Assembly: GCA_964504165.1 (NCBI GenBank)
Contig: CAZDDH010000004.1
Location: 16,748 to 80,747 of the forward strand
DNA from: an uncultured Rickettsiales bacterium
Lineage (GTDB): Bacteria > Myxococcota_A > UBA796 > UBA9615 > CAYRNR01
DNA length: 64,000 nt
Direction of reading: 5' to 3'
Position numbers and translations under genes: made by a program
The notes under the pieces: model-generated
What the model saw: only the letters and a program-made list of their open reading frames with translations
Databases searched by the model: none
What the model was told of the DNA's origin: nothing
Part shown: piece by piece, positions 12,469 through 57,794 of the stretch
Layout: every line of letters begins with the position of its first letter
Position numbering within the stretch: the stretch's first letter is position 1

Positions 12469-14292
12469 TCAGCGAGCGATTCGGTGGCGCACGCGCAGGG
12501 CCGCCATCAGCGCCAGAGCCAGCCACGCCAGCGCCCCTGAGACAGGCTGCCCGCCGGGGACCGAGCAGCGGCAGGCGAACCCGGCCGGCGGCCCGCTGTC
12601 GTCGTCGTCCGCGCCGTTGTCGTCGTCGTCGTCGTCATCCCCGTCGGGGCACGACTCCACGTCCTCGCCGTCGGTGAGCCCGTCGCAGTTGTCGTCCACG
12701 CCGTTGTCGCACTTCTCGTCGCGGTCGGGATGCACACCGGGGTCGTTGTCATCGCAGTCGTCTTCGCAGGCCCCGTACCCGTCGCCGTCGTCGTCCGGGC
12801 GGTCCTTGGTGTCCTCGTTGCAGTCGTTGTCGATGTCGTCGCAGATCATCTCCGGGCAGTCGGGGCAGATGGTGTCGTTGCTGTCGTCACAGTCCCCTTC
12901 ACACTCGTCGCTGCCGTCCCCGTCGTCGTCTATCTCGTGGGGGTGCATCTCGCCGTCACAGTTGCTGTCCATGTGATCGCACTCGGACTCGTCGGCGTAC
13001 GGATGGACCTCGGGGCTGGTGTCGTTGCAGTCCCCCATGCAGCTGGACCAGCCATCGCCATCGTTGTCCTGTTCATCGGGCGGGAGCATCCCGTCACAGT
13101 CGTTGTCCAGGCCGTCGCACATCTCCGGATAGTAGGACGAGCGCCAAGGATCGTGGTCGTCGCAGTCGTTGTAGTAGTAATCCATGTCCACGTCGTAGTC
13201 CATGTACATGGCATCGCTGCCGCCGTAGGCGCCGATGTCACACAACGAGCCGTCCCAGTCGTCCCCCATGGCCTGGCTGTCCCCGTTGTCGATGAAGGGG
13301 CTACCGACGGCCAGCGTGAAGTCGTTGTCCAGATAGCTCCCAGCGTTGGGATTGTAGGCGGTGAACGGGCTGGAATCGGTCCACTCGTCGGTGCCCGGAG
13401 CGTAGCCTTGGTAAGCGCCCGGGTTGGACACCCCCGCATGGTTGTTGACCGAGTACGGCAGACAGTCCTGGTTGTACCCATAGGTGTGGGTCATGGCGAT
13501 GGAGTTGTTGAGCAGGATGTTGTTGAGGCTGGCCACCCAGCCCATGCCCTGGGTGTTGCACGTGGTGCGGAACGCCGTGTTATTGGAGGCAAAGACGTTG
13601 TGGTACAGGTCGACGGCCGGGCTGGGAGTGTTGCCGTCGATGAATGCCAGCTCGATGGCGGTATCGTTGCAGCCCCAGATGATGTTGTTGTTGATCGTGA
13701 GGTTGCTGTCGTACTCGTTGGTGGTCATCTGCATGACCAGGCCGTTGGCCTGGCAGTAGATGATGTTCTCCGAGAACAGCAGCGTGACGCTGCTGAACAG
13801 CTCCAACGCAACCGCGTTGGCGGTGTTCTCGAAGGCGTTGTTGTAGATCGTGAGTTGAGGCACCTGGTTGGGCTGAATGTTCTGGGCGGCGATGCCGTAA
13901 TCCAGCCCCTCGAAGTAGATCTCCGCGATGTACAAGGAGGACTGGATCCCCTCGGCCAGGATGCCCACCTGACCACCGATGATCGACAGACCGCCGACGA
14001 CCGACTCACCGGCGTGGATGACCACGCCGTCCGGATCCGGACTCCGGATGGCCGTCCATGCGGCGCCCGCTCCGATCAGGGAGACGCCGTCCGGGACGAC
14101 CAGCCCGGTCTCGTAGTAGTCCCCCGCCTCCACGTGAACCTGCCACCCGGCGCTGGCGGCAGCGAGCGCCTGCTCGATGGTGGGATAGTCGGTGGGGACG
14201 AAGACGTCCTGGGCGGCGGCCTGCCGTCCCCCCATCAGGGACAAGGCCAACGCCAGCAGCGTCAGCGACCCTCTGTGCAAGATTCGACTCAT
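12469..14292 (-). CDS. Secreted right-handed beta-helix (pectin-lyase-fold) protein with five MopE-like Cys/Asp-rich putative metal-binding repeats and a MYXO-CTERM-like C-terminal sorting tail.
   Basis: Signal peptide MSRILHRGSLTLLALALSLMGGRQAAAQD with GGAGGG RBS. NNNIIWG-type beta-helix repeats. Repeated DCDDxDPxxxPEMCDGLDNDCDG motifs. The tail ...GFACRCSVPGGQPVSGALAWLALALMAALRVRHRIAR is a Cys motif followed by a hydrophobic helix and basic residues. Confidence 0.7.
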   Translation of the reverse strand: MSRILHRGSLTLLALALSLMGGRQAAAQDVFVPTDYPTIEQALAAASAGWQVHVEAGDYYETGLVVPDGVSLIGAGAAWTAIRSPDPDGVVIHAGESVVGGLSIIGGQVGILAEGIQSSLYIAEIYFEGLDYGIAAQNIQPNQVPQLTIYNNAFENTANAVALELFSSVTLLFSENIIYCQANGLVMQMTTNEYDSNLTINNNIIWGCNDTAIELAFIDGNTPSPAVDLYHNVFASNNTAFRTTCNTQGMGWVASLNNILLNNSIAMTHTYGYNQDCLPYSVNNHAGVSNPGAYQGYAPGTDEWTDSSPFTAYNPNAGSYLDNDFTLAVGSPFIDNGDSQAMGDDWDGSLCDIGAYGGSDAMYMDYDVDMDYYYNDCDDHDPWRSSYYPEMCDGLDNDCDGMLPPDEQDNDGDGWSSCMGDCNDTSPEVHPYADESECDHMDSNCDGEMHPHEIDDDGDGSDECEGDCDDSNDTICPDCPEMICDDIDNDCNEDTKDRPDDDGDGYGACEDDCDDNDPGVHPDRDEKCDNGVDDNCDGLTDGEDVESCPDGDDDDDDDNGADDDDSGPPAGFACRCSVPGGQPVSGALAWLALALMAALRVRHRIAR

Positions 14293-14371
14293 GTTTCTGC
14301 CCTCCGGCCAGCGACCCCCGCTGCTGCCCCATGATAGCCAGCGGATCCTCGGGGGTGAAGCGATCCTCGGA

Positions 14372-15349
14372 TCAAAGGTCCCCACCACCCGTGCGCAGCC
14401 AGCAGGCACAGTGGTGCAACGCCCCCACCTCCTCGAGTTGTGGGCCGTCCCCCTGATGGCAGCGGTCAGCGGCGAGCGGGCACCGCGGCGCAAATGGGCA
14501 GCCGGTGTCCGGCCCATCGGGGCCCCGGGGCGCGTTCGGCGTCGCGGCCCCCTTCCCCCGGCCCGGTACGGAGCGCAGCAGGAGCTCGGTGTAGGGGTGG
14601 CGGGGCTCGTCGAACAGGGAGCCCGCCGGGGCGACCTCTACCAGTCGCCCGCGGTACATCACCGCCACGTGCGTACACAGGTGTCGGACCACCGCCAGAT
14701 CATGGCTGATGAACAGGTAGGTCAGCCCGTGCTCTTCCTGCAGATCAACGAGCAGGTTGAGGATCTGAGCCTGCACGGACACATCCAGGGCGCTGACCAC
14801 CTCGTCGCACACCAGGAACTCCGGCCCCAGCACCAGAGCCCGGGCGATGTTGATGCGCTGGCGCTGGCCGCCACTGAACCCGTGGGGGAAACGCCCGGCC
14901 AGTGCCGGGTCCAGCCCAACCCGGTTCAGGGCGGCGGCCACCCGGTCCTGCAGCTCGGTGCCCCGGGCGATGCCGTGGGCCACCAGCGGCTCGGCCAGCG
15001 CCTGGCCGATGGTCATCCGCGGATTGAGGCTCGTGTAGGGATCCTGGAAGGCCATCTGCATACGACGGCGCAGGGCCCGCAGCTCCCCCTCGCCCTGCGC
15101 CAGCACCGGCAGGCCGTCGAAGGTGACGCTCCCCTCGTCCGGCTCCACCAGCCGCAGCACACAGCGGCCCACGGTGGTCTTGCCGCAACCCGACTCCCCC
15201 ACCAGCCCCAAGGTGGTGCCGGTACCGATGGAGAAGCTCACGCCCTGGGCCGCATCGATCCAGCCGGCGGTGCGCATCAACAGGCCGCGGCGCACCGGGT
15301 AGCGCTTGACCAGGCCCTCCACGACCAGCAGCGGGTTCGCCCCGGTCAC
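14372..15349 (-). CDS. dppF: ABC oligopeptide transporter ATP-binding protein, DppF/OppF type.
   Basis: Walker A GESGCGKTT, signature LSGGQRQR and an intact oligopeptide C-terminal domain (GCPFAPRCP...HHCAC). The GTG start overlaps the upstream stop as GTGA. Confidence 0.8.
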   Translation of the reverse strand: MTGANPLLVVEGLVKRYPVRRGLLMRTAGWIDAAQGVSFSIGTGTTLGLVGESGCGKTTVGRCVLRLVEPDEGSVTFDGLPVLAQGEGELRALRRRMQMAFQDPYTSLNPRMTIGQALAEPLVAHGIARGTELQDRVAAALNRVGLDPALAGRFPHGFSGGQRQRINIARALVLGPEFLVCDEVVSALDVSVQAQILNLLVDLQEEHGLTYLFISHDLAVVRHLCTHVAVMYRGRLVEVAPAGSLFDEPRHPYTELLLRSVPGRGKGAATPNAPRGPDGPDTGCPFAPRCPLAADRCHQGDGPQLEEVGALHHCACWLRTGGGDL

Positions 15350-18279: not shown

Positions 18280-19635
18280 TCAACACCCAGGTAGGTTGTA
18301 CTCCACCACCACCGACGCGTTCGGCTGGGGAATGTACGCCTCTTCGAAGACGATGGCGTTGTCCGCCTCCACCCAGGTCCATCCCTGGACGAACCCCACC
18401 TGGTCCACCGTCACCTGGATGGTCCCCGGGTAGGGGAGCTGGCTCAGCTCGAAGCGATCCCGCTCGGTGAGGTAGATGGGATCGTCCTCGTAGACCGGGG
18501 TCCAGTCCGCGTCACAGATGGCAATATCGACCCCGCCGGTCACCGCGATGGCCTCGGCGATGCGGGGTGCCCCTAGGCCCCCGTCGCAGCCGTTGGCCGT
18601 CGGATAGATGGCGCTGATACTCACGTCTGCCGGGTCGTCCTTGAGGGCCCATAGCTGGTCCACGTAGTCCTGGACGTCTGCCGGCGAGTGGTCGTCCTCG
18701 TCGGTCATGATGATGACCGCAAGCGCTGCCTCATCCCGCAGGAACCCCTCGTTGTACTCGCCGGGGTTGGTCATCGCCGGCTGTAGCGCCGCCGTGCCGT
18801 ACAGCAACGGCTGTTCGTCGCCGAAGCCACCCGTCCCCACGGTGACATTGGTGGCGTAGGCGCCCGCCGGATTGCCGGAGTTGCCGTCGATGAAACGCTC
18901 GCCACCGTTGAGGTACTCGTCAAAAGTGGTCACCACGCCGATGTGGTAGTCCACCCAGTTGTCATCAAAGAAACCGATCAGCGCGGCCCCCAACGAGGCC
19001 AGCATCTCCTGCTCCTCGTACATGGAACCCGAGCTGTCCACGACCCACAGCTGGTCCACCGGCTTCTCCGGCGGCGCCACGAATTCATCGGCGTGGGAAT
19101 CTGCCGTGACCCCCCACCCCTGGGCATAGGTCACGACGATCGGGTAATCCTCGTGATCGGTGTAGGCCTGGATCGTGACGGCGTGGTGGTCGGCGGCCGA
19201 GGGGATGAACGAGATCTGCAGGTCCAGGCCGCTGAACGGTTCCACGGACCAGGGGGGCTCGGAGGAGGCGGTGACGACGAGGGCGCCGGGATCGTTCAAC
19301 AGCACCAGCGGCAGCACCACGACGGTGGCGTCCGTGTCGTTGATCAGGGTCAGGTCGAGGATCTCCTCGCAGCCGAGCACCGTGTCCGGGAACTCCAGCT
19401 CACCGGAGAACTGAATGCCGCTCTGGCACTCGTCGTCGTAGCCGTCCACCAGCCCGTCGCAGTCGTTGTCCACGTCGTCCAGGCAGTCCTCGTCAGCGCC
19501 CGGGTAGATGCTTGCGTCCTCGGGCCCGCAGTCGGAGGAGTCCTCCCAGCCGTCGCCGTCAAAATCGAACCGCGTGTCCGTTTGGGTGCAGCCCACCAGC
19601 GGTATGGCCAATCCGATGATCCACAGCAGGCGCAT
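18280..19635 (-). CDS. Lipoprotein with an N-terminal MopE-like Cys/Asp-rich putative metal-binding repeat and a VWA-like domain.
   Basis: Lipobox LAIPLVGC. DFDGDGWEDSSDCGPEDASIYPGADEDCLDDVDNDCDG. MIDAS-like VVDSSGSM. Confidence 0.7.
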   Translation of the reverse strand: MRLLWIIGLAIPLVGCTQTDTRFDFDGDGWEDSSDCGPEDASIYPGADEDCLDDVDNDCDGLVDGYDDECQSGIQFSGELEFPDTVLGCEEILDLTLINDTDATVVVLPLVLLNDPGALVVTASSEPPWSVEPFSGLDLQISFIPSAADHHAVTIQAYTDHEDYPIVVTYAQGWGVTADSHADEFVAPPEKPVDQLWVVDSSGSMYEEQEMLASLGAALIGFFDDNWVDYHIGVVTTFDEYLNGGERFIDGNSGNPAGAYATNVTVGTGGFGDEQPLLYGTAALQPAMTNPGEYNEGFLRDEAALAVIIMTDEDDHSPADVQDYVDQLWALKDDPADVSISAIYPTANGCDGGLGAPRIAEAIAVTGGVDIAICDADWTPVYEDDPIYLTERDRFELSQLPYPGTIQVTVDQVGFVQGWTWVEADNAIVFEEAYIPQPNASVVVEYNLPGC

Positions 19636-25677: not shown

Positions 25678-26637
25678 CTATTTCCACCCCGCCCTGTTCA
25701 GGTACGTCTTGACCTCTTGAACCGCCAGCTCGTGTAGGGCGGCCTTGTCGATGACCGTGGGTTCCACGTCCGGAGCCTTGTGGGAGCCCTTGTTGAGGAT
25801 GCGGTACGACTGGTGGAGGAACCATCCCCCCACCATGCCCACGTCCCCGGCACCGCCATCCATGGTCAACCCGCGGGCATCGACCTCCGCCTGACGGAAG
25901 CGGGACGCCAGCCCGTCGAGGCGCATGGCCTTGAGGCAGCCTTCCCGACGCATCGTACAGGCCACGAACCCCTCTGGCAGGTAACGCACCAGCAGCAGGT
26001 CGGCCCCGTTGTAGCGGCCCGCCCGTGCCGCAGCCGAGCTGGAACTCTCCATCGTCAACACGGTGGCGTCCCCGACCTCGCTGCGGATGGCGTCGTCCGC
26101 ATCGTCCAGCGCCTGGAACCAGGCCCGCTCCACGGCCACGATGGCGTCGAAGACCGGCTCGGCGTCATGGTAGACCCGCTCGCCCTGCCCGGGGTGCAGC
26201 TGGTTGAAGCCGTTGATGATGGCCGGCAGGGCCACCGCATGGTCGATGGGATCCCGGCTGCGGATCGATTGCCCCTTGAGATCCTGGCGGGAACCGAAGG
26301 CCAGCACCTTGCGAAGCTCGGGGAGGTTGCGCACCCCCAGGTGTTCGGCGAGCAGCTCGGCGGCGGCGGCGTCCAGGTTGCCACTACCCGGCCGGTCCCG
26401 GCGGGGGTGGTTGTCGAAGCGGCCGCCCCCCAGGTCGACGACCAGCAGCCCCTGCTCTTCCAGCGCCTCCGGGCCGCCGGCTTCTTCCACCGCCATGGGC
26501 GACATGAAGCGCAGCTCGCATGTGTCGCAGCCGGGGAAGTCCCGCGCTCCGTAGCGCCGCAGCAGGTAGATGCACAGGAGGGCATCCAGGTCGGGGAAGG
26601 GATGGGTGACGATAGCCCGGATGTGGTCTTCGCTCAC
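25678..26637 (-). CDS. Hypothetical protein, possibly a DHH-superfamily-like phosphoesterase (DxD ... DNH motifs). Translationally coupled by GTGA to the upstream HD-GYP gene.
   Basis: HPFPDLDALL, VVDLGGG and FDNHP motifs resemble DHH motifs I-III. The assignment is tentative. Confidence 0.45.
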   Translation of the reverse strand: MSEDHIRAIVTHPFPDLDALLCIYLLRRYGARDFPGCDTCELRFMSPMAVEEAGGPEALEEQGLLVVDLGGGRFDNHPRRDRPGSGNLDAAAAELLAEHLGVRNLPELRKVLAFGSRQDLKGQSIRSRDPIDHAVALPAIINGFNQLHPGQGERVYHDAEPVFDAIVAVERAWFQALDDADDAIRSEVGDATVLTMESSSSAAARAGRYNGADLLLVRYLPEGFVACTMRREGCLKAMRLDGLASRFRQAEVDARGLTMDGGAGDVGMVGGWFLHQSYRILNKGSHKAPDVEPTVIDKAALHELAVQEVKTYLNRAGWK

Positions 26638-28229
26638 GGGTCGCCGCCTTCCGCAGCGATGAACTTGGCCAGTTCGTCGCGCAGCTCTTCTTCTACGTAT
26701 CGAAGGAATTCGTCCACGAACGCGGGATCCCAGCGCCGTCGCTTGCCATCCTTGAGGATATCGATGACCCGCTGGAGGGGCATGGGGTCCCGGTAATGAC
26801 GCTCCTTGGTCAGGGCGTCGAAAACATCCGCGATGCCGATCATCTGGCCCGCTTCGGGGAAGTCGTCGGCGGAGAGGCCGAAGGGGTACCCTTTGCCGTC
26901 CAGGCGCTCGTGATGGGTGGCGGCCATGAACGGCAGATTCTCCATCCCCTCGGGAAAATGGATCCGCGCGAGGATGTCGTGGGTCAGCTGCGGGTGGGCC
27001 TTGATGGCCATGAACTCGGCGTCGTCGAGCTTGCCCGGCTTACGCAGCACCGCGTCGTCGACGCCGATCTTGCCGTAGTCGTGGAGCAGCCCGGCCCAGT
27101 AAATCTGCTTGCACTCCTCCGGGGGACGCCCAAGGCGCTCGGCCAGCCGGCGAGAGTAGGTGGCCACCCGTTTGGAATGGCCCGAGGTCATGTTGTCGCG
27201 AGCGTCGATGCTGGCCGCCAGGGTCTCCATCAGGCTCTCGAGCATGCGCTCCTGCTCAGATACCAGGTACAGCGTCTCCAGGGCGATGCCCAGCTGGCGC
27301 CCCACGGCCAGCAGGAACTCCAGCATCTCGTCGTCGTACGGGGTGCGCATGGTCAAGGTGTCGGTGTACAGGGCACCCCAGACGCGCTTCATGCTGGTGA
27401 TGGGGGCCACCATCACCGACCGCACCGCCTGGAAGGCCAGCGTCTCCGCGGCGGCCAGGCGCTCGTCCTGCGGTGCGTCCCGGCTGACCATGCCCACCCG
27501 ATCCCGCATCACCAGGCCGGTGATGACTCGGGACGGCTGGAACGAGGCCAGGTTGCCCGTCGTGGCTCGCACCGCCACGGCCACCTGCTCTTCGGCCCCC
27601 GGCTCCTTGATGATCACCGCGGCCCGCTCACCGGGCAGCTGGTCCACCACCGAATCCAGGATCAGCTCGTACATCTTCTCCTGTTCGCGGCTGGACGTCA
27701 GCGCGGCGGTGAGTTCGTACAGGCAGCCCAGCCGGCGCACGGACTCCAGGTCCTTGCGCTGGGCGGTGATCTCCCCCATCACGTAGCGGGACTGTTCCAG
27801 ATCGAGGGTCCGCAGGATCTGCGTGCCCGGATCCGGCTTGAGCGTGTCGGCGCCGGCGGACGCCGTCTCGACCCGGCGGCCGAGCTTGACCGCGTGCCCC
27901 CCCGGTGCGCCCACGTGCACCCAGGTGTCCAGCGGGATGGGCATCTCTCGGATGCGCATCCCGTGGAGATAGGAGCCCGAAGTGCTGGACAGGTCCTTGT
28001 AGAGCCACCGTTCCCCGTCCTTCTGGATCAAGGCGTGGCGGCGGGAAACAAACTGGCTTGCAATGCAGATGTCCGAGCTGCTGCTGCGGCCGATCAGCGC
28101 CTTGCCGGCCTGGATCGGATAGGTCGATTCGGTGCCCTGTTTGTCGCGGTGGACGATGAAATAGGACGTGGCAGGCTCGGTACCCATGATCGGGTGATCG
28201 TATCTGGCTAGTACGTTCGGATCCAGCAC
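26634..28229 (-). CDS. FHA-GAF-HD-GYP multidomain protein, a putative c-di-GMP phosphodiesterase.
   Basis: N-terminal FHA (GRSSSSDICIASQFVSRRHALI), central GAF-like region, HD (LLHDYGK) and HHERLDGKGYP motifs. Start is GTG at 28229 or ATG at 28187. Confidence 0.85.
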   Translation of the reverse strand: MLDPNVLARYDHPIMGTEPATSYFIVHRDKQGTESTYPIQAGKALIGRSSSSDICIASQFVSRRHALIQKDGERWLYKDLSSTSGSYLHGMRIREMPIPLDTWVHVGAPGGHAVKLGRRVETASAGADTLKPDPGTQILRTLDLEQSRYVMGEITAQRKDLESVRRLGCLYELTAALTSSREQEKMYELILDSVVDQLPGERAAVIIKEPGAEEQVAVAVRATTGNLASFQPSRVITGLVMRDRVGMVSRDAPQDERLAAAETLAFQAVRSVMVAPITSMKRVWGALYTDTLTMRTPYDDEMLEFLLAVGRQLGIALETLYLVSEQERMLESLMETLAASIDARDNMTSGHSKRVATYSRRLAERLGRPPEECKQIYWAGLLHDYGKIGVDDAVLRKPGKLDDAEFMAIKAHPQLTHDILARIHFPEGMENLPFMAATHHERLDGKGYPFGLSADDFPEAGQMIGIADVFDALTKERHYRDPMPLQRVIDILKDGKRRRWDPAFVDEFLRYVEEELRDELAKFIAAEGGDP

Positions 28230-50530: not shown

Positions 50531-50667
50531 CCTGAAACCTCCTCCTGCCCGGTTATTCCACCGGGCTCGACGCCAGGGAAACAACTCCCTGTGATAGAAT
50601 GCGCGCAAATGAATCCAGGGAAAAGTGGGCCTCAGAAAAGAGCTCACCACAGGTAGTTCGGACCCAC

Positions 50668-51945
50668 ATGAGCGATGTAAAACCACTCGATGATCTTCTG
50701 GAAGAGCTAGAAAATCTACCAGACCTCGATGACGAGGAAGAGTCGAATTCCGCCGCCGGATTCATCCAGCAGCAGATCAACTACCGGGAATACCCCGTCC
50801 TCGTCGTGGACGACGAGGAGGAAAACCTCCTCGCGTTCCAGCTGAATTTCCGCCACGACTTCTTGCTGGACACCGCCATCAGCGCCGCGGATGCCCTCAC
50901 CCTGCTCACCAAGAAGGAGTACGCGGTGGTGGTCACCGACCAGCGTATGCCGGGCATGACCGGCGTCGAGCTGCTGGAAAAGACGGTCGACCTGTACCCC
51001 CAGCTGATCCGCATCATCGTCACCGGTTACACGGACAACCAGAGCCTCATCGACGCCATCAACATGGGGCGCATCTACAAGTACATCACCAAGCCGTGGG
51101 CCCGCAACGACATGTCGGTGACCATCAAGCGGGCCATCGAGGCGTACCGCCTGGCCAAGGAGAACGACCGCCTACTGCGGGAGCTCAAGAGCAAGAACGA
51201 GGAGCTGGAGGCCAAGGTCGAGGAGCGCACGCGCAAGCTGCGCGAGGCCAACACCAAGCTGCACCAACTGGCCATCACCGATGGCCTGACGGGCCTGTTC
51301 AACCACCGCTACTTCCAGGAGAAGTGGCGGGAGGAGATCAAGCGCTCCGAACGCTACGGTGAGCCCGTGTCCCTGATCATCATGGACGTGGACAACTTCA
51401 AGAACTACAACGACCGGCGCGGTCATCCCCAGGGGGATGTGCTGTTGCGTGACCTGGCCATGCTGCTGGAACAGAGCTGCCGCGAGGTGGATGTGGTCTC
51501 CCGCTACGGGGGCGAAGAATTTGCCATCATCCTGCCCCGCACCGGCAAGCCCGATTCCGCGCGCCTGGCCGAACGGATCCGCGCCCGCATCGAGGACTCC
51601 CCGTTCCCGCACCGGGAGGTCCAGCCGGGCAAACGCCTGACCTGCTCGTTCGGGCTGGCCGCCTTCCCCGAGGACGGTGCCACCGCCTCGACGGTCCTGG
51701 AACGGTCCGATCAGGCGCTCTATGCCGCCAAGCAGGGAGGCCGCAATCAGGTCGTCGTGTACCAGCCCGGCCTTCCGATGCCGTCCCCCGACTCTCCCGT
51801 GGTCACGAGCTCCGATATCCCAGGGGGTTCCACGTCCGGCGACCCCGAAGATTACGCGGACGGCGACGGCGCCAAATCCGAGGACTCACTGTTCGACGAT
51901 CTGCCGTCCAGTGCCATCGACATGATCGAGCCCAAAGACAAGTAG
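50668..51945 (+). CDS. Response-regulator receiver plus GGDEF diguanylate cyclase.
   Basis: The REC domain ([11 protein letters not shown]...D) is followed by a coiled-coil and GGDEF (RYGGEEF). An alternative start lies at 50599. Confidence 0.85.
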
Positions 51946-52015
51946 CCGGGCCAAACCGGCGTTCTTGCTGGAAACCACACAAAGAATCTGTATCCTGCGT
52001 AAACAGGAGACAGAC

Positions 52016-53452
52016 ATGCGCTCGAAACTTGTCACCGAATTTGCACTCCTCGTCCTTCTGGCGGGGCTCGCTGCCTTCGTGGGGGCGTGCCAAGACTACA
52101 ACGTGGCCCTGCTGCCCGGTTACCTTGGGAAAGAGTTCTACGCGGTCGATCTGAACAACTTTGATGGCAGCGGATTTCTGAATCCGTCTTCCGACGAGGC
52201 TCAGTTCGCGGTCACGGTCAGCAACCCGGACAACAGTGCTGGCGAAGCCACCGTGAAGATCAAGCAACTGGGCGGCGATGGCGTCTCGACGACGGAGCAC
52301 ATCTCGGCGGGCGACCTGGAAATCTTCGATCTGCCACGCTGGGACGCGGAAGACAGCTTCCTGGGAGAGCGGTCGTACTTCATCGAGAGCACGGTTCCCG
52401 TGACCGCACACCAATTCAACCCAGCGAACAACGAGGGTGTGTATTCCAACGATGCCTCTCTGCTCATCCCAGTGCCTTCTCTGGGAACTCGCTATCGAGC
52501 GGCCTGCTGGCCATTCGCCCAAGAAGCGTATCAGCTAGAAGACATCTATGGCGCAGCGGACTACATCACCGTGGTGGCCTCGGAGAATGAGACAACGGTC
52601 ACTATCCAACCGGCGGCCAACATTCGTGAGGGTGACGGCGTCGACGCTGTGCAAGTAGGAGCCACCCTCATTCGCACACTCAACAGCGGAGACGTACTGC
52701 AGGTCGAGAGTGACTGGCTGGGGTTGGATAATCCGCCAACAGATCTGACCGGCTCGCTGGTGACCGCTGATAAACCTGTTGCTGTCTTCACGGGTAACGA
52801 GTGCGCGTTGGTTCCAGCGGGAATCGAAGCGTGTGACCACATCGAGGAACAGATCTTCCCCGTGAATTTCTGGGGTTCACATTATTTCGTGGTCAAGTTC
52901 GAGCCGCGCAAGACCGAAAACGATGTGTTTCGCATCATCGCCGACGAGGATGGAACCGCAGTAGATACCATTCCCAATCTCGAAGGATTCCCACTCTCTT
53001 TGGGCGCAGGCGAATTCTACCAATTCGAATATGACGGTGACTTCGAGGTCACGGCCAACGCCCCGGTCAGCGTGATTCAGTACATGACGGGAGCCGCGTA
53101 TTGTGGTGACGATGATCCCACAGCCACCGGCGACCCGGCGATGCTAGTGGTCATTCCCGAAGAGCAATTCATCGATGATTACATTTTCCTCACACCAGCC
53201 AACTACGTGCAGGATTACATCACGGTAGTCGCAACCACCGGTACGACGGTCATACTCGATGGTGAAGAGGTCGAGGATTCACTGTGGGTCGATTTCCCGT
53301 CCGGCGACGCCATGCGAGCTAGGGTCCCCGTCAATGCTGGCGTCCATCACTTGACCGCGGACAAGAATGTGGGCGTTGTCGCCTATGGGTTTGACCGCGC
53401 AGTCAGCTACGCCTACCCCGGCGGCGCAGCCCTCGAACCCCAGGAACAATAG
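52016..53452 (+). CDS. Hypothetical lipoprotein, possibly beta-helix or IgGFc-binding-N-terminal-like.
   Basis: Lipobox LLVLLAGLAAFVGAC. AGGAGA RBS. Confidence 0.6.
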   Translation: MRSKLVTEFALLVLLAGLAAFVGACQDYNVALLPGYLGKEFYAVDLNNFDGSGFLNPSSDEAQFAVTVSNPDNSAGEATVKIKQLGGDGVSTTEHISAGDLEIFDLPRWDAEDSFLGERSYFIESTVPVTAHQFNPANNEGVYSNDASLLIPVPSLGTRYRAACWPFAQEAYQLEDIYGAADYITVVASENETTVTIQPAANIREGDGVDAVQVGATLIRTLNSGDVLQVESDWLGLDNPPTDLTGSLVTADKPVAVFTGNECALVPAGIEACDHIEEQIFPVNFWGSHYFVVKFEPRKTENDVFRIIADEDGTAVDTIPNLEGFPLSLGAGEFYQFEYDGDFEVTANAPVSVIQYMTGAAYCGDDDPTATGDPAMLVVIPEEQFIDDYIFLTPANYVQDYITVVATTGTTVILDGEEVEDSLWVDFPSGDAMRARVPVNAGVHHLTADKNVGVVAYGFDRAVSYAYPGGAALEPQEQ

Positions 53453-53475: not shown

Positions 53476-53811
53476 CTACTTCTCGCTCTCCTTGACCCCC
53501 AGCAATTCACCCAGGTGGCCGAAGAAGCCGCTGCGATCCTTGCCGGCGAGGGTGGTGAGCTCCCCCTTGTCCAGGTAGACACCGCCACAGACGGGGCAGC
53601 GCTCGATCTCCACGCCACGGAAGCCCATCGTCTCCATGACGTTGCCGCACTTGGCGCAGCGCATCCAGTGCGCCTGCTTGAGCTCTTCGGCCTCTTCGAC
53701 GGCCTTCTCGTCCTCTCGCTTGGCGGCGAGCTTGTAGAGCTTCTCCTGATCCTGGCGCTGGAAGTAGTCGTGCTCCTCCGGAGCGGGTTTCTTGGTCTTT
53801 CCGGTGGCCAT
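53476..53811 (-). CDS. Small zinc-ribbon protein (CxxC-N16-CxxC).
   Basis: WMRCAKCGNVMETMGFRGVEIERCPVCGGVYLDKGEL. Confidence 0.6.
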   Translation of the reverse strand: MATGKTKKPAPEEHDYFQRQDQEKLYKLAAKREDEKAVEEAEELKQAHWMRCAKCGNVMETMGFRGVEIERCPVCGGVYLDKGELTTLAGKDRSGFFGHLGELLGVKESEK

Positions 53812-53878
53812 CTGATGATCTCCCGAGCGGCGGTTGCCGCATCGTAGGGTTGGTCACAAAAAAAGAGGGCTACCCGCA

Positions 53879-56089
53879 CTAGCCGGCGGGGCCGTCTCTC
53901 ATCTCCAGCAGTCGCCGCAGCAGGATGCGCACCTCGGCGGCTTCCCGTCCCTCCGGCGCCAAGCCGATATAGGTCTGGTACTCGTTGATGGCGTCGTCGG
54001 TGCGGCCAAGGCCCTCGTAGGACAGCCCCAGCCCGTAATGGTTTTCGGCATCCATCGAGTTCAGATTGACCGCCTTGCGGAAATGCTCCGCCGCCCGGCT
54101 GTTGTTGCCCAGTTCGATGTAGGACCAGCCCAGCCCCTTCTGCGCATTGGCATTGGAAGGGCTGGCGGCCAGGATCTTGTTGAACTCGGCGATGGCCTCG
54201 GTGTGCTGCCCGCCGCTGGCGAGCCGCATCGCCCGGGACATGTCCCCCGGATCCGCCGGAGGCTCGGGCGTCGGCTCCTCGACCGGCTCTGCGAACGACA
54301 CGATGCCGTCGTCCTCCTCCGGGTCGTCGGCCGGTGGTGTCGGCTCCTCGGCAGGCGTTTCTTCCTCGACCTCCGGATCCTCGGCGGGGTCCTCGACCGG
54401 GTCGGTGGGCGTGGGCTCCTCGCCGTTGTCCGCGAGGGCGTCCGTCGGTGCCTCCGCCTCGGTGGGCTCCGTCTCCGTCGGTGTCTCCACCTCGGCCGGC
54501 GTGAGCGAGTCGTTGGACGGATTGGTGAACTGTTCTTCGGTGGTCTGACGCATGTTGTGGACGGCATAGCCGGCGCCGACGAGGATCGCCGCGATGACGA
54601 TCACGCCCCCGATGATCCAGGGCAACATCGTGGGCCCGGGCTCGTCGTCCTCGTCTTCTTCGTCATCATCGAAGGCCTGCCCGAAATCGTCCCCCTCCCA
54701 AACCTCGTCTTGCGGATCGCCCTCCTCATCCTCGCTGAAGGCATCCTCGAACTTCTTGAAATCCCCGTCCAAGCTTTCCTCTTCGCTCGTTGGGGAGATG
54801 GCCTTGGGGGTCTCTTCGACGCCACGGCCGACGCTGGCCTCGTCCTCTTCGCTCTCCGGCTCCCCGTCGCCCCCATCGCCGACGTCCGACAGGTCCGCCG
54901 TGGTGGGCGACTGCCCCATGTCGGCGCCGGGCTCCTCGATGATGCTCTGAGCCGCCGGGTCGAACCAGGGCTCTACCACGTCCTCGGACGCGATCTTGGA
55001 TACCGCATCGATGGCGCCCGCAGGGATCGGGGTGCCCGCTTCTTCCTCGCCGCCGGGGATGACCTGCTCCTCGTGTGAGATGTCCGGGTTCGCGGCATCG
55101 AAGAAGACGTCTGCGCTCGACTTTGCTGCCGCATCTTCTGCGGGCGGCTCCGCCGGTTCCTCCGCCGGGGCCTCACCCTCGGCCGCGTGGACCACCGGTT
55201 CGGCCGCCGGGCCGGCCTCGGCGGCCATCTCTTGGCCCAGACTCTCCGGCTCCACGACCTCTTCGTGTGGGGCCGCCGCCGCCTGCTCCAGATCCCGCCA
55301 GGAGTCTGCAAACTCCTGCTCCGCCGCGCTGTCGGCCACTTCGTCCACCGGTGTGGCCGGCGGCGGGCCCGGGGCGTCGTCCACGGACGGGGTCACCCGG
55401 CCGGGGTCGCCCATCAGCGACGAAAAGGAAGTGTCCGGTTCGACGATGTCGGCGCCCGGTTCGGGGAAACCGGCCGGGACCAGGTCTTCGTCCGAGTCCA
55501 GCGGAGCATCGGCCAGATCCTCCGGAGCAAAGGCCACCAGCGTCCGGGCCTCCCCCTCGTCGGGCATGCTGGCCATCACCTCGTGGGTGGGGTGCACCTG
55601 TGGCGCCTCGAACTCATCGTCGTCGTCGTGGACCGGAGGCTCCTCCACCATCAGCATCTCGCGCGTCTCGTAGACCTTGAGATGCTCCCGAGTCTGCAGG
55701 AGTTCCCGCCGCGTCTCCCGCAGCTGGCGCAACACCGCAAAGAAAGCCCGTAGCTGGCTCAGCCTGCTGGCCAGCTCCCAGCTCTCACCGTCGGCCGATA
55801 CCTCGTCGGTGGCCAGTACCCGCTTCTCGATGACCCACCGCTGCAGCAGGGACAGGTCGCGGACCGTGTAGACTCTCCCCTCCTGCCGAAGGTAGAGCAC
55901 CTTCTTGGTGAGCTTACCGATCTTGCGCTTCTTCTTTGTGCTGGACTCCTTGAGGGCCGGTCCGGTCTTGGGACGATGGATGGTGAATACGTGCTCGCAG
56001 TTGGAGCACTTCACCTTGGCCCCACGGCTAGGGATACGATCGTCCTGGAAGGCGTATTCGCTCTCGCAACTGGGGCAGGTGATTCGCAC
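53879..56089 (-). CDS. Bitopic protein with an N-terminal MJ0042-type zinc ribbon, a GYF-like (DUF4339-like) segment, a long acidic disordered linker, a single TM helix and C-terminal TPR repeats.
   Basis: ITCPSCESEYAF...KVKCSNCEHVFTI, then YLRQEGRVYTVRDLSLLQRWV. More than 350 aa of Asp/Glu/Pro-rich sequence. TM LPWIIGGVIVIAAILVGAGYAV. TPR-like tail. Confidence 0.7.
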   Translation of the reverse strand: MRITCPSCESEYAFQDDRIPSRGAKVKCSNCEHVFTIHRPKTGPALKESSTKKKRKIGKLTKKVLYLRQEGRVYTVRDLSLLQRWVIEKRVLATDEVSADGESWELASRLSQLRAFFAVLRQLRETRRELLQTREHLKVYETREMLMVEEPPVHDDDDEFEAPQVHPTHEVMASMPDEGEARTLVAFAPEDLADAPLDSDEDLVPAGFPEPGADIVEPDTSFSSLMGDPGRVTPSVDDAPGPPPATPVDEVADSAAEQEFADSWRDLEQAAAAPHEEVVEPESLGQEMAAEAGPAAEPVVHAAEGEAPAEEPAEPPAEDAAAKSSADVFFDAANPDISHEEQVIPGGEEEAGTPIPAGAIDAVSKIASEDVVEPWFDPAAQSIIEEPGADMGQSPTTADLSDVGDGGDGEPESEEDEASVGRGVEETPKAISPTSEEESLDGDFKKFEDAFSEDEEGDPQDEVWEGDDFGQAFDDDEEDEDDEPGPTMLPWIIGGVIVIAAILVGAGYAVHNMRQTTEEQFTNPSNDSLTPAEVETPTETEPTEAEAPTDALADNGEEPTPTDPVEDPAEDPEVEEETPAEEPTPPADDPEEDDGIVSFAEPVEEPTPEPPADPGDMSRAMRLASGGQHTEAIAEFNKILAASPSNANAQKGLGWSYIELGNNSRAAEHFRKAVNLNSMDAENHYGLGLSYEGLGRTDDAINEYQTYIGLAPEGREAAEVRILLRRLLEMRDGPAG

Positions 56090-56141
56090 GGCCCGATTCT
56101 ACCTTCTCTGCTCCACAGGGGAAACGCCGAACCCTTTTCTG

Positions 56142-57794
56142 CTAGTTACCCTCGATCTGATCGAGCAGCTTCTGGGCGTCCGGATAGGTGGAGGCTGCCT
56201 TCTTGAGCGGCCCTTTGGCAGCCCCATCTTGCCCACACTGGTGGTAGGCCTGACCGAGCTTGAAATTGAACGTCGAGTTGGACGGATTCATGCTGACAGC
56301 GAGCTTCAGGTGCCCGATGGCCTCGTTGCAGTTGCCGCTGGCCAGAGCCATGTCCCCCAGCATGAACCAGTCGTCCGCCGTGGCGTCGTCTTCCTCCGTA
56401 CTGGGCTCCTCGACCGGGGCGGGTGTCTTCTCTTCCTGGCGTTCCACCACGGGCTCTTCGCGCGGCGTATCCCGTTCTGCTGGCGGCGTGATCTCAGGCT
56501 CCGGCGTGACGTCCTTTGGCGTGACCTGCTCGAGGGGAGCCGTCTCCGGATCGCTCGATCCGTTGATCTTCTGCGCCGTCCCGTCGGCGACGAATTCCTC
56601 GTCCCCATCGGGGATGACCCCGTCCGACCCGCCTTCTTCCTCGCGGATCCGGTCCTGCTGCTCCTTGAGCTGCCGGTCGATCTTCTCTCGCGCCTCGTCC
56701 CGCAGGCTGGAATCTTCCGCACCTCCGGAGGCCTGGCCGCCGCCCCCCGGGGCTGGGGTCGTGGTCGCGGGTGGGCCTCCGCGCAGGGCGAAGATGACCA
56801 CCACGACGATGACCACGCCGACCAGGGCAACCCCGTAAAATACCGGCGGTTTGAGCCCCATGATGCGCGGTTCACCGGCGGCCTTCTTGCGGGTCCGGTG
56901 CCGCGGCGGCTTCTTCAGATCAACCTTGAAGCCGCTTGCGGATGGATCGCTGCCCGCCCCACTGGAGTCTTCCGATACCGAGGCTTCGGTATCCGACGAA
57001 GCCGGCGTCCTACGCTCGGCACCCGCACCGGTGACGGACGGGGTCGGGGTGCCGGCATCCGCTGCGGCTTCCTGCCCCGAGGCCTCCCGCTTCTTGTCCG
57101 AGTAGACCTTGAGCAAGAAGCGCTCGAGTTCCTCGTCATTGCCCACGGGCGACCAGTTCGTACCGTCGAAGGAGATCTGATCTCCGGGGGTGATCTTCTT
57201 TTCCTGGATGTAGCGATAGAGCGTCTGCACGTCGCTGAAATCGTAAACCAGCCCGATGGCGACCTTGACCTTCCACGTGGTGACACCGACGGCCTTGAAA
57301 TCGAGGCTCTCCGCCTTGAGCGGTGTGCCCATGTCGAAGGAGGTGTCCGGGGCCGATGGGGCGGGACTGGCCTCCGGAGTAGCCGGAGATGGCGGCGGAT
57401 CGACAGGGGTCGTGGGGGTCCCCGCTGGACGCCGGTGGCGCCGGCGTACGCCACGGGTACGGGTCGTCGGCGCGGCTTCGTTCGTCGCACCCTTGCCGAA
57501 GATATCTTCGGCCCTCAGGCTGCCGGGGACCTGGCTCCCCGCGGCCGGAGAGTCGTGATCGCTGATGGATGCAGGGCCCGGGGGGGTCACGTTACGGGCT
57601 GGCGCGGCCGGCTGAGGCTGCTCGGTCTCGGGGGGACTCGCCGCAGCGGGGCTCTTGGGGTCCTCCTCGACATCCTTGCTGAAGATGACGAAGACATGCG
57701 AGCAGCGTGGGCAGGTGATCTTGGCGCCGCGCCCTTTGATTTTGCGGCCCGGCATCTTGTAACGAGCTTTGCAGCTTGGGCAGGTGATTACCAT
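56142..57794 (-). CDS. Paralog of the upstream gene: MJ0042 zinc ribbon, GYF-like segment, Pro/Ala-rich disordered region, one TM helix and C-terminal TPR repeats.
   Basis: ITCPSCKARYKMP...KITCPRCSHVFVI, then ITPGDQISFDGTNWSPVGNDEELERF. TM VFYGVALVGVVIVVVVIFAL. TPR tail. Confidence 0.7.
   Translation of the reverse strand: MVITCPSCKARYKMPGRKIKGRGAKITCPRCSHVFVIFSKDVEEDPKSPAAASPPETEQPQPAAPARNVTPPGPASISDHDSPAAGSQVPGSLRAEDIFGKGATNEAAPTTRTRGVRRRHRRPAGTPTTPVDPPPSPATPEASPAPSAPDTSFDMGTPLKAESLDFKAVGVTTWKVKVAIGLVYDFSDVQTLYRYIQEKKITPGDQISFDGTNWSPVGNDEELERFLLKVYSDKKREASGQEAAADAGTPTPSVTGAGAERRTPASSDTEASVSEDSSGAGSDPSASGFKVDLKKPPRHRTRKKAAGEPRIMGLKPPVFYGVALVGVVIVVVVIFALRGGPPATTTPAPGGGGQASGGAEDSSLRDEAREKIDRQLKEQQDRIREEEGGSDGVIPDGDEEFVADGTAQKINGSSDPETAPLEQVTPKDVTPEPEITPPAERDTPREEPVVERQEEKTPAPVEEPSTEEDDATADDWFMLGDMALASGNCNEAIGHLKLAVSMNPSNSTFNFKLGQAYHQCGQDGAAKGPLKKAASTYPDAQKLLDQIEGN

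Follow-up and report, generated by a model that had tools for sequence, protein, structure and literature searches.

Among membrane proteins with a zinc ribbon (ZnR) of the MJ0042 type, GltJ and ZitP are the only two cited as characterised in Attia et al. 2024 (PMC11135422), and the role of both lies in organising cell poles or motility machinery. In GltJ, the ZnR spans residues 1-42 and binds a motif in the protein's own linker and, once displaced from it, MglB; MglA-GTP is bound by that same linker motif (L86-T107) rather than by the ZnR or the GYF domain, and the GYF domain (residues 138-222) binds a proline-rich segment of AglZ (PMC11135422). The ZnR of ZitP is a cytoplasmic binder of the polar organiser PopZ, a protein reported absent from Myxococcus, and, of bacterial proteins with a GYF domain, about 44% have an adjacent ZnR, most of these pairs preceding a membrane module (PMC11135422). 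In its discussion, the same article puts forward the general idea that the ZnR+GYF cassette, mounted on diverse membrane or extracytoplasmic modules, serves as a transmembrane switch. Here we describe two adjacent genes, p1 and p2, from a 64 kb stretch of contig CAZDDH010000004.1, filed under an uncultured Rickettsiales bacterium and referred to below, at its full length, as the window. Their products probably form an anciently duplicated pair of single-pass inner-membrane adaptors, belonging to a large family, so far uncharacterised and in essence confined to Myxococcota.

The two genes lie in tandem on the minus strand, p2 (56142..57794; 550 amino acids (aa), ATG start) being followed after 52 nt by p1 (53879..56089; 736 aa, GTG start), exactly where an earlier note on this DNA had placed two open reading frames (ORFs); a third, small gene, p3 (53476..53811, minus strand; 111 aa), follows p1 after another 67 nt. 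In a window of ~65% GC, the GC content at third codon positions (GC3) of p1, p2 and p3 (0.85, 0.80 and 0.88, respectively) is typical of real genes. In addition to the ORF list and domain scans, both genes are supported by AlphaFold2 modelling, and p2 by orthologues at ~20 loci of metagenome-assembled genomes (MAGs); moreover, the exact p1 sequence is carried by an 81.5 kb ENA metagenome scaffold (ERZ23498660, SUTE22-1 scaffold_728). Both products are predicted to be bitopic. From its N-terminus, p1 consists of a ZnR, a short basic connector, a GYF-like domain, an acidic disordered region, a transmembrane (TM) helix, an acidic and proline-rich linker and three tetratricopeptide repeats (TPRs), and p2 of a ZnR, a proline-rich linker, a GYF-like domain, a further linker, a TM helix, another linker and a short TPR-like tail. 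The domain scans thereby agree with the architecture proposed in the earlier note, in which a ZnR and a GYF-like domain precede one TM helix and a TPR tail replaces the AgmX/PglI tail of GltJ. When all six frames of the window were scanned with hidden Markov models (HMMs) of the family, the ZnR and the middle domain were found nowhere but in p1 and p2.

The ZnR occupies residues 1-40 of p1 (55970..56089, minus strand) and 1-38 of p2 (57681..57794, minus strand), its four cysteines being arranged as CxxC-x19-CxxC (C5-P-S-C8 ... C28-S-N-C31 in p1 and C5-P-S-C8 ... C28-P-R-C31 in p2). Its proposed assignment to the MJ0042 type is borne out by profile searches, which exceed the curated cut-offs of both TIGR02098 (44.8 bits for p1 and 33.0 for p2; cut-off 20.9) and PF13717 (54.9 and 46.6 bits; cut-off 30.3). 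The best sequence match of the N-terminal queries in the PDB is the GltJ ZnR (7zok; E 4.8e-7 for p1 and 7.9e-4 for p2), with the ZitP ZnR (2nb9) also among the best matches of both, and a profile of the family retrieves the same two structures at E 2.1e-10 and 1.9e-8, respectively. The ZnR of the p1 AlphaFold2 model also superposes on that of ZitP (Foldseek E 4.9e-3, TM-score 0.69).

The middle domain spans residues 62-134 of p1 (55688..55906, minus strand), where it carries the family motif LQ-x-W ... D-E-[IV]-S ... G-x-x-W ... L ... FF, and residues ~170-240 of p2 (57075..57287, minus strand). Homology of the two copies, and with it the paralogy of p1 and p2 that had been suggested for this pair, is established both by BLASTP (p1 residues 55-129 against p2 residues 167-237, 29% identity over 75 aa, E 3e-7) and by alignment of a p2-orthologue profile with the p1-family profile (hhalign, 98.85% probability, E 4e-17). 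In the AlphaFold2 models, the ~70-residue domain shows the same beta-beta-alpha-beta-beta-alpha order in p1 and p2 (mean predicted local distance difference test score 79.6 and 81.5, respectively); at the level of the fold it has the four-stranded sheet and two helices of a GYF domain and can be superposed on solved examples; GYF domains and Tic56 rank second, third and sixth among the structural matches of the p2 model, amid unrelated matches of equal Z-score. At the level of sequence, the Pfam model GYF_2 (PF14237; threshold 25.8 bits) has no match to p1 or p2 at E<=10, even when the isolated domains are searched. Of ten segments from relatives, four, one of them from a p2 orthologue, have it as their sole or nearly sole match, at sub-threshold scores of 13.4-18.0 bits. 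Searches of the PDB with the family and p2 middle-domain profiles recovered the ZnRs of GltJ and ZitP and no GYF domain, and hence provide no sequence-level bridge. Judged by the predicted structures, the middle domain is a diverged branch of the GYF fold lying outside GYF_2 as now defined; the GYF/DUF4339-like segment of the earlier note is accordingly retained as regards the order of its fold in the models, but not as a Pfam assignment, since p1 and p2 themselves remain unmatched and their relatives fall below the threshold.

The long low-complexity linkers described in the earlier note are evident from composition. The connector between ZnR and GYF-like domain is basic and only ~21 residues long in p1, compared with 125 residues in p2, whose proline-rich and poorly conserved cytoplasmic linker covers residues 39-165 (57300..57680, minus strand). 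In p1, residues 135-487 (54629..55687, minus strand) form an acidic region, presumably disordered and cytoplasmic and not conserved among orthologues, which is extreme in its charge from residue 151 onwards (about 100 D+E and about 10 K+R in residues 151-487). Each protein then has a single TM helix, as had been predicted, at residues 488-510 of p1 (54560..54628, minus strand; mean hydropathy 2.5) and 316-337 of p2 (56784..56849, minus strand; mean hydropathy 3.0). Both helices are followed by Pro/Glu/Thr-rich spacers, that of p1 being acidic, presumably periplasmic and located at residues 511-612 (54254..54559, minus strand); across about 20 orthologues, the linker sequences of p1 and p2 are barely conserved or not conserved at all.

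The TPR tails assigned to both proteins in the earlier note hold to different degrees. That of p1 (residues ~613-725; 53915..54253, minus strand) is unambiguous and conserved in orthologues, scoring 57.8 bits against TPR_16 (cut-off 32.7) and exceeding the cut-offs of nine other TPR models, with TPR_2 and TPR_11 at 47.0 and 44.4 bits; the C-terminal repeats of p2 (residues ~471-548; 56151..56384, minus strand) align with this region, but stay below the cut-off of every Pfam model (best, TPR_11 with 23.0 versus 26.8 bits, E 6e-5) and are better described as TPR-like.

Neither p1 nor p2 has a signal peptide, the ZnR beginning at residue 1 in both. For p2, an orientation with the N-terminus inside and the C-terminus outside (N-in/C-out) is strongly indicated by the charges flanking its helix (K+R, 5 on the N-terminal side versus 1 on the other), by a mean K/R bias of +4.0 towards the N-terminal side among its orthologues, 21 of 23 of which favour N-in, and by the trend of the wider family (75 N-in versus 24 opposite). 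The same orientation is proposed for p1 by analogy, because the Cys4 zinc site, the ~490 residues that precede the helix without a leader and the family charge trend together point to N-in/C-out for both proteins; the flanking charge itself is ambiguous in the p1 clade. The N-terminal flank of the p1 helix in the window and in seven related loci (L002-L008 of the set retrieved for comparison) is extremely acidic and the C-terminal flank slightly basic, counter to the positive-inside rule for an N-in protein. That rule is obeyed by p2 orthologues and by more distant p1 relatives.

In zinc-binding anti-sigma (ZAS) factors, one TM helix joins a zinc domain to a periplasmic domain. Since p1 and p2 resemble them in this layout, and p3 contains a Pfam 'transcription factor zinc-finger' domain, signalling of the anti-sigma type can be envisaged, whereby the zinc domain would sequester a cytoplasmic regulator until the TPRs sense a periplasmic signal. 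The zinc motif is, however, the CxxC...CxxC of the MJ0042 class rather than the HxxxCxxC of ZAS domains, Pfam and NCBIfam scans found no match to the RskA or zf-HC2 anti-sigma models, and no gene for a sigma factor of the extracytoplasmic function type was found among the scanned neighbours or in the annotation of the fetched loci. With the wrong zinc motif and no sigma gene nearby, this reading was rejected as very improbable.

How far the family extends became apparent with an exhaustive HMMER search using p1 residues 1-135, which returned 1,929 cluster representatives at E<=1e-3, 432 of them also passing E<=1e-10; such a search was needed because word-indexed searches with single sequences were nearly empty, giving one match for p1 residues 1-135 and two for the p2 middle-domain profile. 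Most of the best 150 of the 1,929 matches span both ZnR and middle domain, and 119 of these 150 have exactly one TM helix, at a median position of ~271 and with a tail of ~261 aa beyond it. A Pfam scan of 83 relatives detected the ZnR in 81 and TPRs in 72. The conserved core of the family can be summarised by a motif of invariant or near-invariant positions, W-x-[VI]-R ... G ... F ... L-Q-x-W-[IV] ... D-E-I-S ... G-x-x-W ... L ... F-F. On three ENA long-read contigs (L030, L032 and L034), the family genes and the neighbouring gatA, gatB, obg and L21/L27 genes alike are split into many short ORFs by apparent frameshift errors, and assembly frameshifts of this kind may explain why the word-indexed search yielded almost only short 'partial' family members.

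Named matches come almost entirely from Myxococcota, their source names being Myxococcaceae, Anaeromyxobacteraceae, Polyangia, Haliangium, Kofleriaceae and unclassified Myxococcota or 'Deltaproteobacteria'. Among the related loci L002-L008, L010, L011, L013, L014 and L018-L020, the MAGs closest to this locus bear the title 'uncultured Rickettsiales bacterium', and two other MAGs that of 'Enterobacteriaceae'; as the family is otherwise named Myxococcota, these record titles look mislabelled. The sole annotation attached to family proteins is 'zinc-ribbon domain-containing protein'. When ten relatives were scanned at full length against NCBIfam, only MJ0042 and generic TPR similarity emerged and no model specific to the family, and literature searches on the zinc ribbon in combination with GYF, TPR and Myxococcus, and on MJ0042, found no study of the p1/p2 family.

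Gene order was compared across 28 retrieved genome loci. In the window, uvrD/pcrA ends 188 nt upstream of p2, and the neighbours of the p2-p1-p3 cluster are glmU, uvrD and genes for an IgGFc_binding protein and a response regulator with a GGDEF domain (RR-GGDEF). The order glmU-uvrD-p2-p1-p3 recurs in about 20 MAGs, whose UvrD proteins are as little as 42% identical; retention of the p2-p1 order at this distance indicates that the duplication is old and that both copies have been kept. In GCA_029210625.1, uvrD is likewise followed by a p2-like and then a p1-like gene, the p2-like product (391 aa) running from a ZnR and a proline-rich linker through the middle domain and a TM helix to a short TPR-like tail. 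Downstream of p3, the IgGFc_binding and RR-GGDEF genes of the syntenic MAG loci are usually convergent; in the window, the ORFs 50599..51945 and 51965..53452, both on the plus strand, encode the RR-GGDEF and IgGFc_binding-domain proteins, are transcribed convergently towards the cluster and recur in synteny in most of the related MAGs.

The product of p3 is predicted to be soluble, with a charged N-terminal region and a zinc ribbon of class PF13453 (Zn_ribbon_TFIIB, 51.9 bits). The small zinc-ribbon gene reported downstream of the pair is therefore real, but its ribbon is of this class and not of the MJ0042 type; its nearest solved relative is PDB 8yoz (E 2e-6), an entry whose function is unstated. 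A p3 gene lies downstream of p1-like genes in 17 of the genome loci; in more distant relatives (L023 and L026), a single p1-like gene is followed by p3, and a p1-like gene followed by a p3-like PF13453 ORF also occurs in an FtsK...GatCAB context. p3 hence trails p1-type genes in at least three contexts, namely downstream of uvrD-p2-p1, behind a p1-like gene that stands alone, and in the interval from FtsK to GatCAB (L002-L026, L030, L032 and L034), and this recurrence in separate surroundings identifies it as a conserved partner rather than a third paralogue. p2, p1 and p3 probably act together as one conserved module. Between p1 and p3, a terminator-like hairpin, GGCTAGTGCGGGTAGCC, followed by a T7 run (53868..53884, minus strand) overlaps the stop codon of p1; over the region as a whole, sites of this kind do not exceed the shuffled expectation (5 versus 3.1 +/- 1.5).

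GltJ, also known as AgmX, which serves the Agl-Glt gliding machinery of Myxococcus xanthus as its inner-membrane switch protein, is similar to p1 and p2 in combining a Cys4 ZnR, a GYF-fold domain, disordered linkers, a single TM helix and a presumed periplasmic C-terminus. Unlike them, it ends in an AgmX/PglI (TonB-C-like) domain instead of TPRs and has a long ZnR-GYF linker with the MglA-GTP/ZnR motif, whereas p1 lacks such a linker and that of p2 is not conserved; moreover, the GltJ GYF domain (7z3c) cannot be aligned with the p1/p2 middle domain by sequence or profile, and the p1/p2 genes lie outside any glt/agl cluster. The GltJ equivalog model NF033761 (671 positions, cut-off 450 bits) matches p1 with 28.6 bits over residues 1-56 only and has no match to p2 at E<=1, and the AgmX/PglI C-terminal model NF033768 matches neither protein. 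Orthology to GltJ was rejected on the grounds of this score, the missing AgmX/PglI tail and the lack of glt/agl neighbours.

ZitP of Caulobacter crescentus (2nb9) also carries an N-terminal MJ0042-type ZnR on a bitopic membrane protein. It is not known to have a GYF domain, and a periplasmic DUF3426 takes the place of the TPRs; Pfam finds no DUF3426 in p1 or p2, whose architecture is hence not ZitP-like. The ZnR+GYF class of Attia et al. 2024 resembles p1 and p2 in placing a ZnR N-terminal to a GYF-type domain and a membrane-associated C-terminal module, is enriched in myxobacteria and is proposed to relay across the membrane. Because their middle domain lies below the GYF_2 threshold, p1 and p2 belong to this class at the level of the fold, and the text of PMC11135422 consulted here mentions neither a tandem p2-p1 pair nor a PF13453 partner.

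The earlier note had further suggested that p1 and p2 are adaptors coupled to a polarity GTPase, on the understanding that the ZnR+GYF pair of GltJ binds MglA-GTP and MglB; this is imprecise, MglA-GTP being bound by the linker and AglZ by the GYF domain (PMC11135422). A GltJ-like polarity switch, whose heads would read MglA-GTP/MglB and so determine where along the cell axis an envelope machine other than Agl-Glt is put in place or taken apart, is nevertheless in keeping with the proximity of the p1/p2 ZnRs, among solved structures, to that of GltJ, which is an MglB binder, with the long ZnR/GYF-like linker of p2, as in GltJ, and with the restriction of the family to Myxococcota, where MglA and MglB are common. 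Against it stand the linker itself, the weak GltJ equivalog match described above and the genomic surroundings. With a p1 connector of only ~21 aa and a 125-residue p2 linker that is barely conserved among 20 orthologues, no counterpart of the MglA-reading element is apparent. Neither mglA nor mglB, nor any glt or agl gene, lies within the 64 kb window, a stretch too short to stand for the genome, and tblastn with MglA/MglB queries found no match in the window or in 34 related loci (532 kb), a negative of little weight given flanks of only ±10 kb. In addition, the same type of ZnR binds the unrelated PopZ in ZitP, so that the fold does not predict the ligand. Coupling to polarity GTPases thus finds no support in these data, and a switch of this kind is improbable.

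AgmX/PglI C-terminal domains, which the earlier note had reported elsewhere in the window (2972..8578), are present in the first of the two ORFs concerned (2972..4123, minus strand; 55.7 bits versus a cut-off of 40) but sub-threshold in the second (4586..8578, minus strand; 26.6 bits). The first product (383 aa) also bears weak resemblance to the GltG C-terminus, and the second (1,330 aa) has a weak TonB-C match. Lying 45-50 kb away, lacking an MJ0042 ZnR and falling outside the conserved synteny, these ORFs were rejected as partners of p1 and p2.

An alternative starting from the other end of the molecules regards them as scaffolds for envelope integrity or the cell cycle, in which a periplasmic TPR on a TonB/TolA-like spacer would contact peptidoglycan-associated or outer-membrane assembly factors, as do TPRs of the CpoB/YbgF, BamD, PilW and LapB types, while the head would link to a housekeeping process. 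The near-universal presence of the family across named Myxococcota lineages suits a housekeeping role, as does the company of the core genes glmU, uvrD, ftsK, gatCAB and obg, although this neighbourhood is functionally incoherent. Similarity of the tails to YbgF, PilW, BamD and LapB models is weak and generic, all TPR equivalog scores being far below their cut-offs and no specific TPR family being recovered, and no finding connects the ZnR or the GYF-like domain with envelope biogenesis. A scaffold of this sort is a tentative option, rather unlikely though better placed than the polarity switch.

We therefore return to the adaptor pair as the preferred reading of p1 and p2, which is supported by the domain content, family size, gene order and topology described above and has a precedent in the two characterised ZnRs of this type, those of GltJ and ZitP, both of them cytoplasmic protein-binding modules (PMC11135422). 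The cytoplasmic head of each protein would comprise two small protein-binding modules, namely the diverged GYF-like domain and, ahead of it, the Cys4 zinc ribbon of the GltJ/ZitP type. A tether, long and disordered, would join this head to the TM helix, and a second disordered spacer, TonB-like and rich in Pro/Glu, would hold a small array of TPRs out in the periplasm. The proteins would most likely act by coupling the two sides of the inner membrane physically, the head recruiting one or more cytoplasmic partners, for example a proline-rich or polar landmark protein, and the TPRs holding a periplasmic or outer-membrane partner.

Several observations weigh against this interpretation. Neither the GltJ equivalog model nor the PDB profile searches align the middle domain with the GYF domain of GltJ, and the charges around the TM helix of p1 and of its nearest orthologues are balanced or tilt slightly against N-in (0-3 K/R before the helix versus 1-4 after it). 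Furthermore, the association with uvrD and glmU may reflect no more than synteny of the core genome, and the hairpin between p1 and p3 may partly uncouple transcription of the latter.

A more ambitious version of the adaptor pair would join p2, p1 and p3 into a three-protein trans-envelope module with an unmodelled GYF branch. Acting as a second GltJ-type switch, it would read a polarity or cell-cycle cue, be it MglA/MglB or another landmark, and position a periplasmic or outer-membrane machine through its TPRs, the p1/p2 pair and p3 supplying the logic that GltJ holds in one chain. We consider this version doubtful, on a par with the MglA/MglB switch discussed above.

Further from the cluster, an FHA-GAF-HD(HD_5) protein encoded at 26634..28229 (minus strand) suggests additional cyclic-di-GMP signalling in the window. 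MopE-type 'putative metal-binding motif' repeats (PF11617) occur in the ORFs 12469..14517 (minus strand; three copies, 63.4 bits) and 18280..19635 (minus strand).

In summary, the placement of a ZnR and a GYF domain on a membrane module is already described (PMC11135422), analysis of p1 and p2 alone reveals no new mechanism, and a specialist is unlikely to be surprised by them. What the analysis adds is a widespread variant, not studied in the literature searched, that is TPR-tailed and paralogue-paired, contains a diverged GYF-like domain and is accompanied by a conserved small partner; the analysis also flags a GYF-like branch that current Pfam models miss. With about 1,900 cluster representatives, nearly all from Myxococcota where named, it constitutes a far larger set of relatives than GltJ and ZitP, and its domain map, paralogue pair and small partner gene offer a concrete target for testing the generality of the 'ZnR+GYF switch module'.

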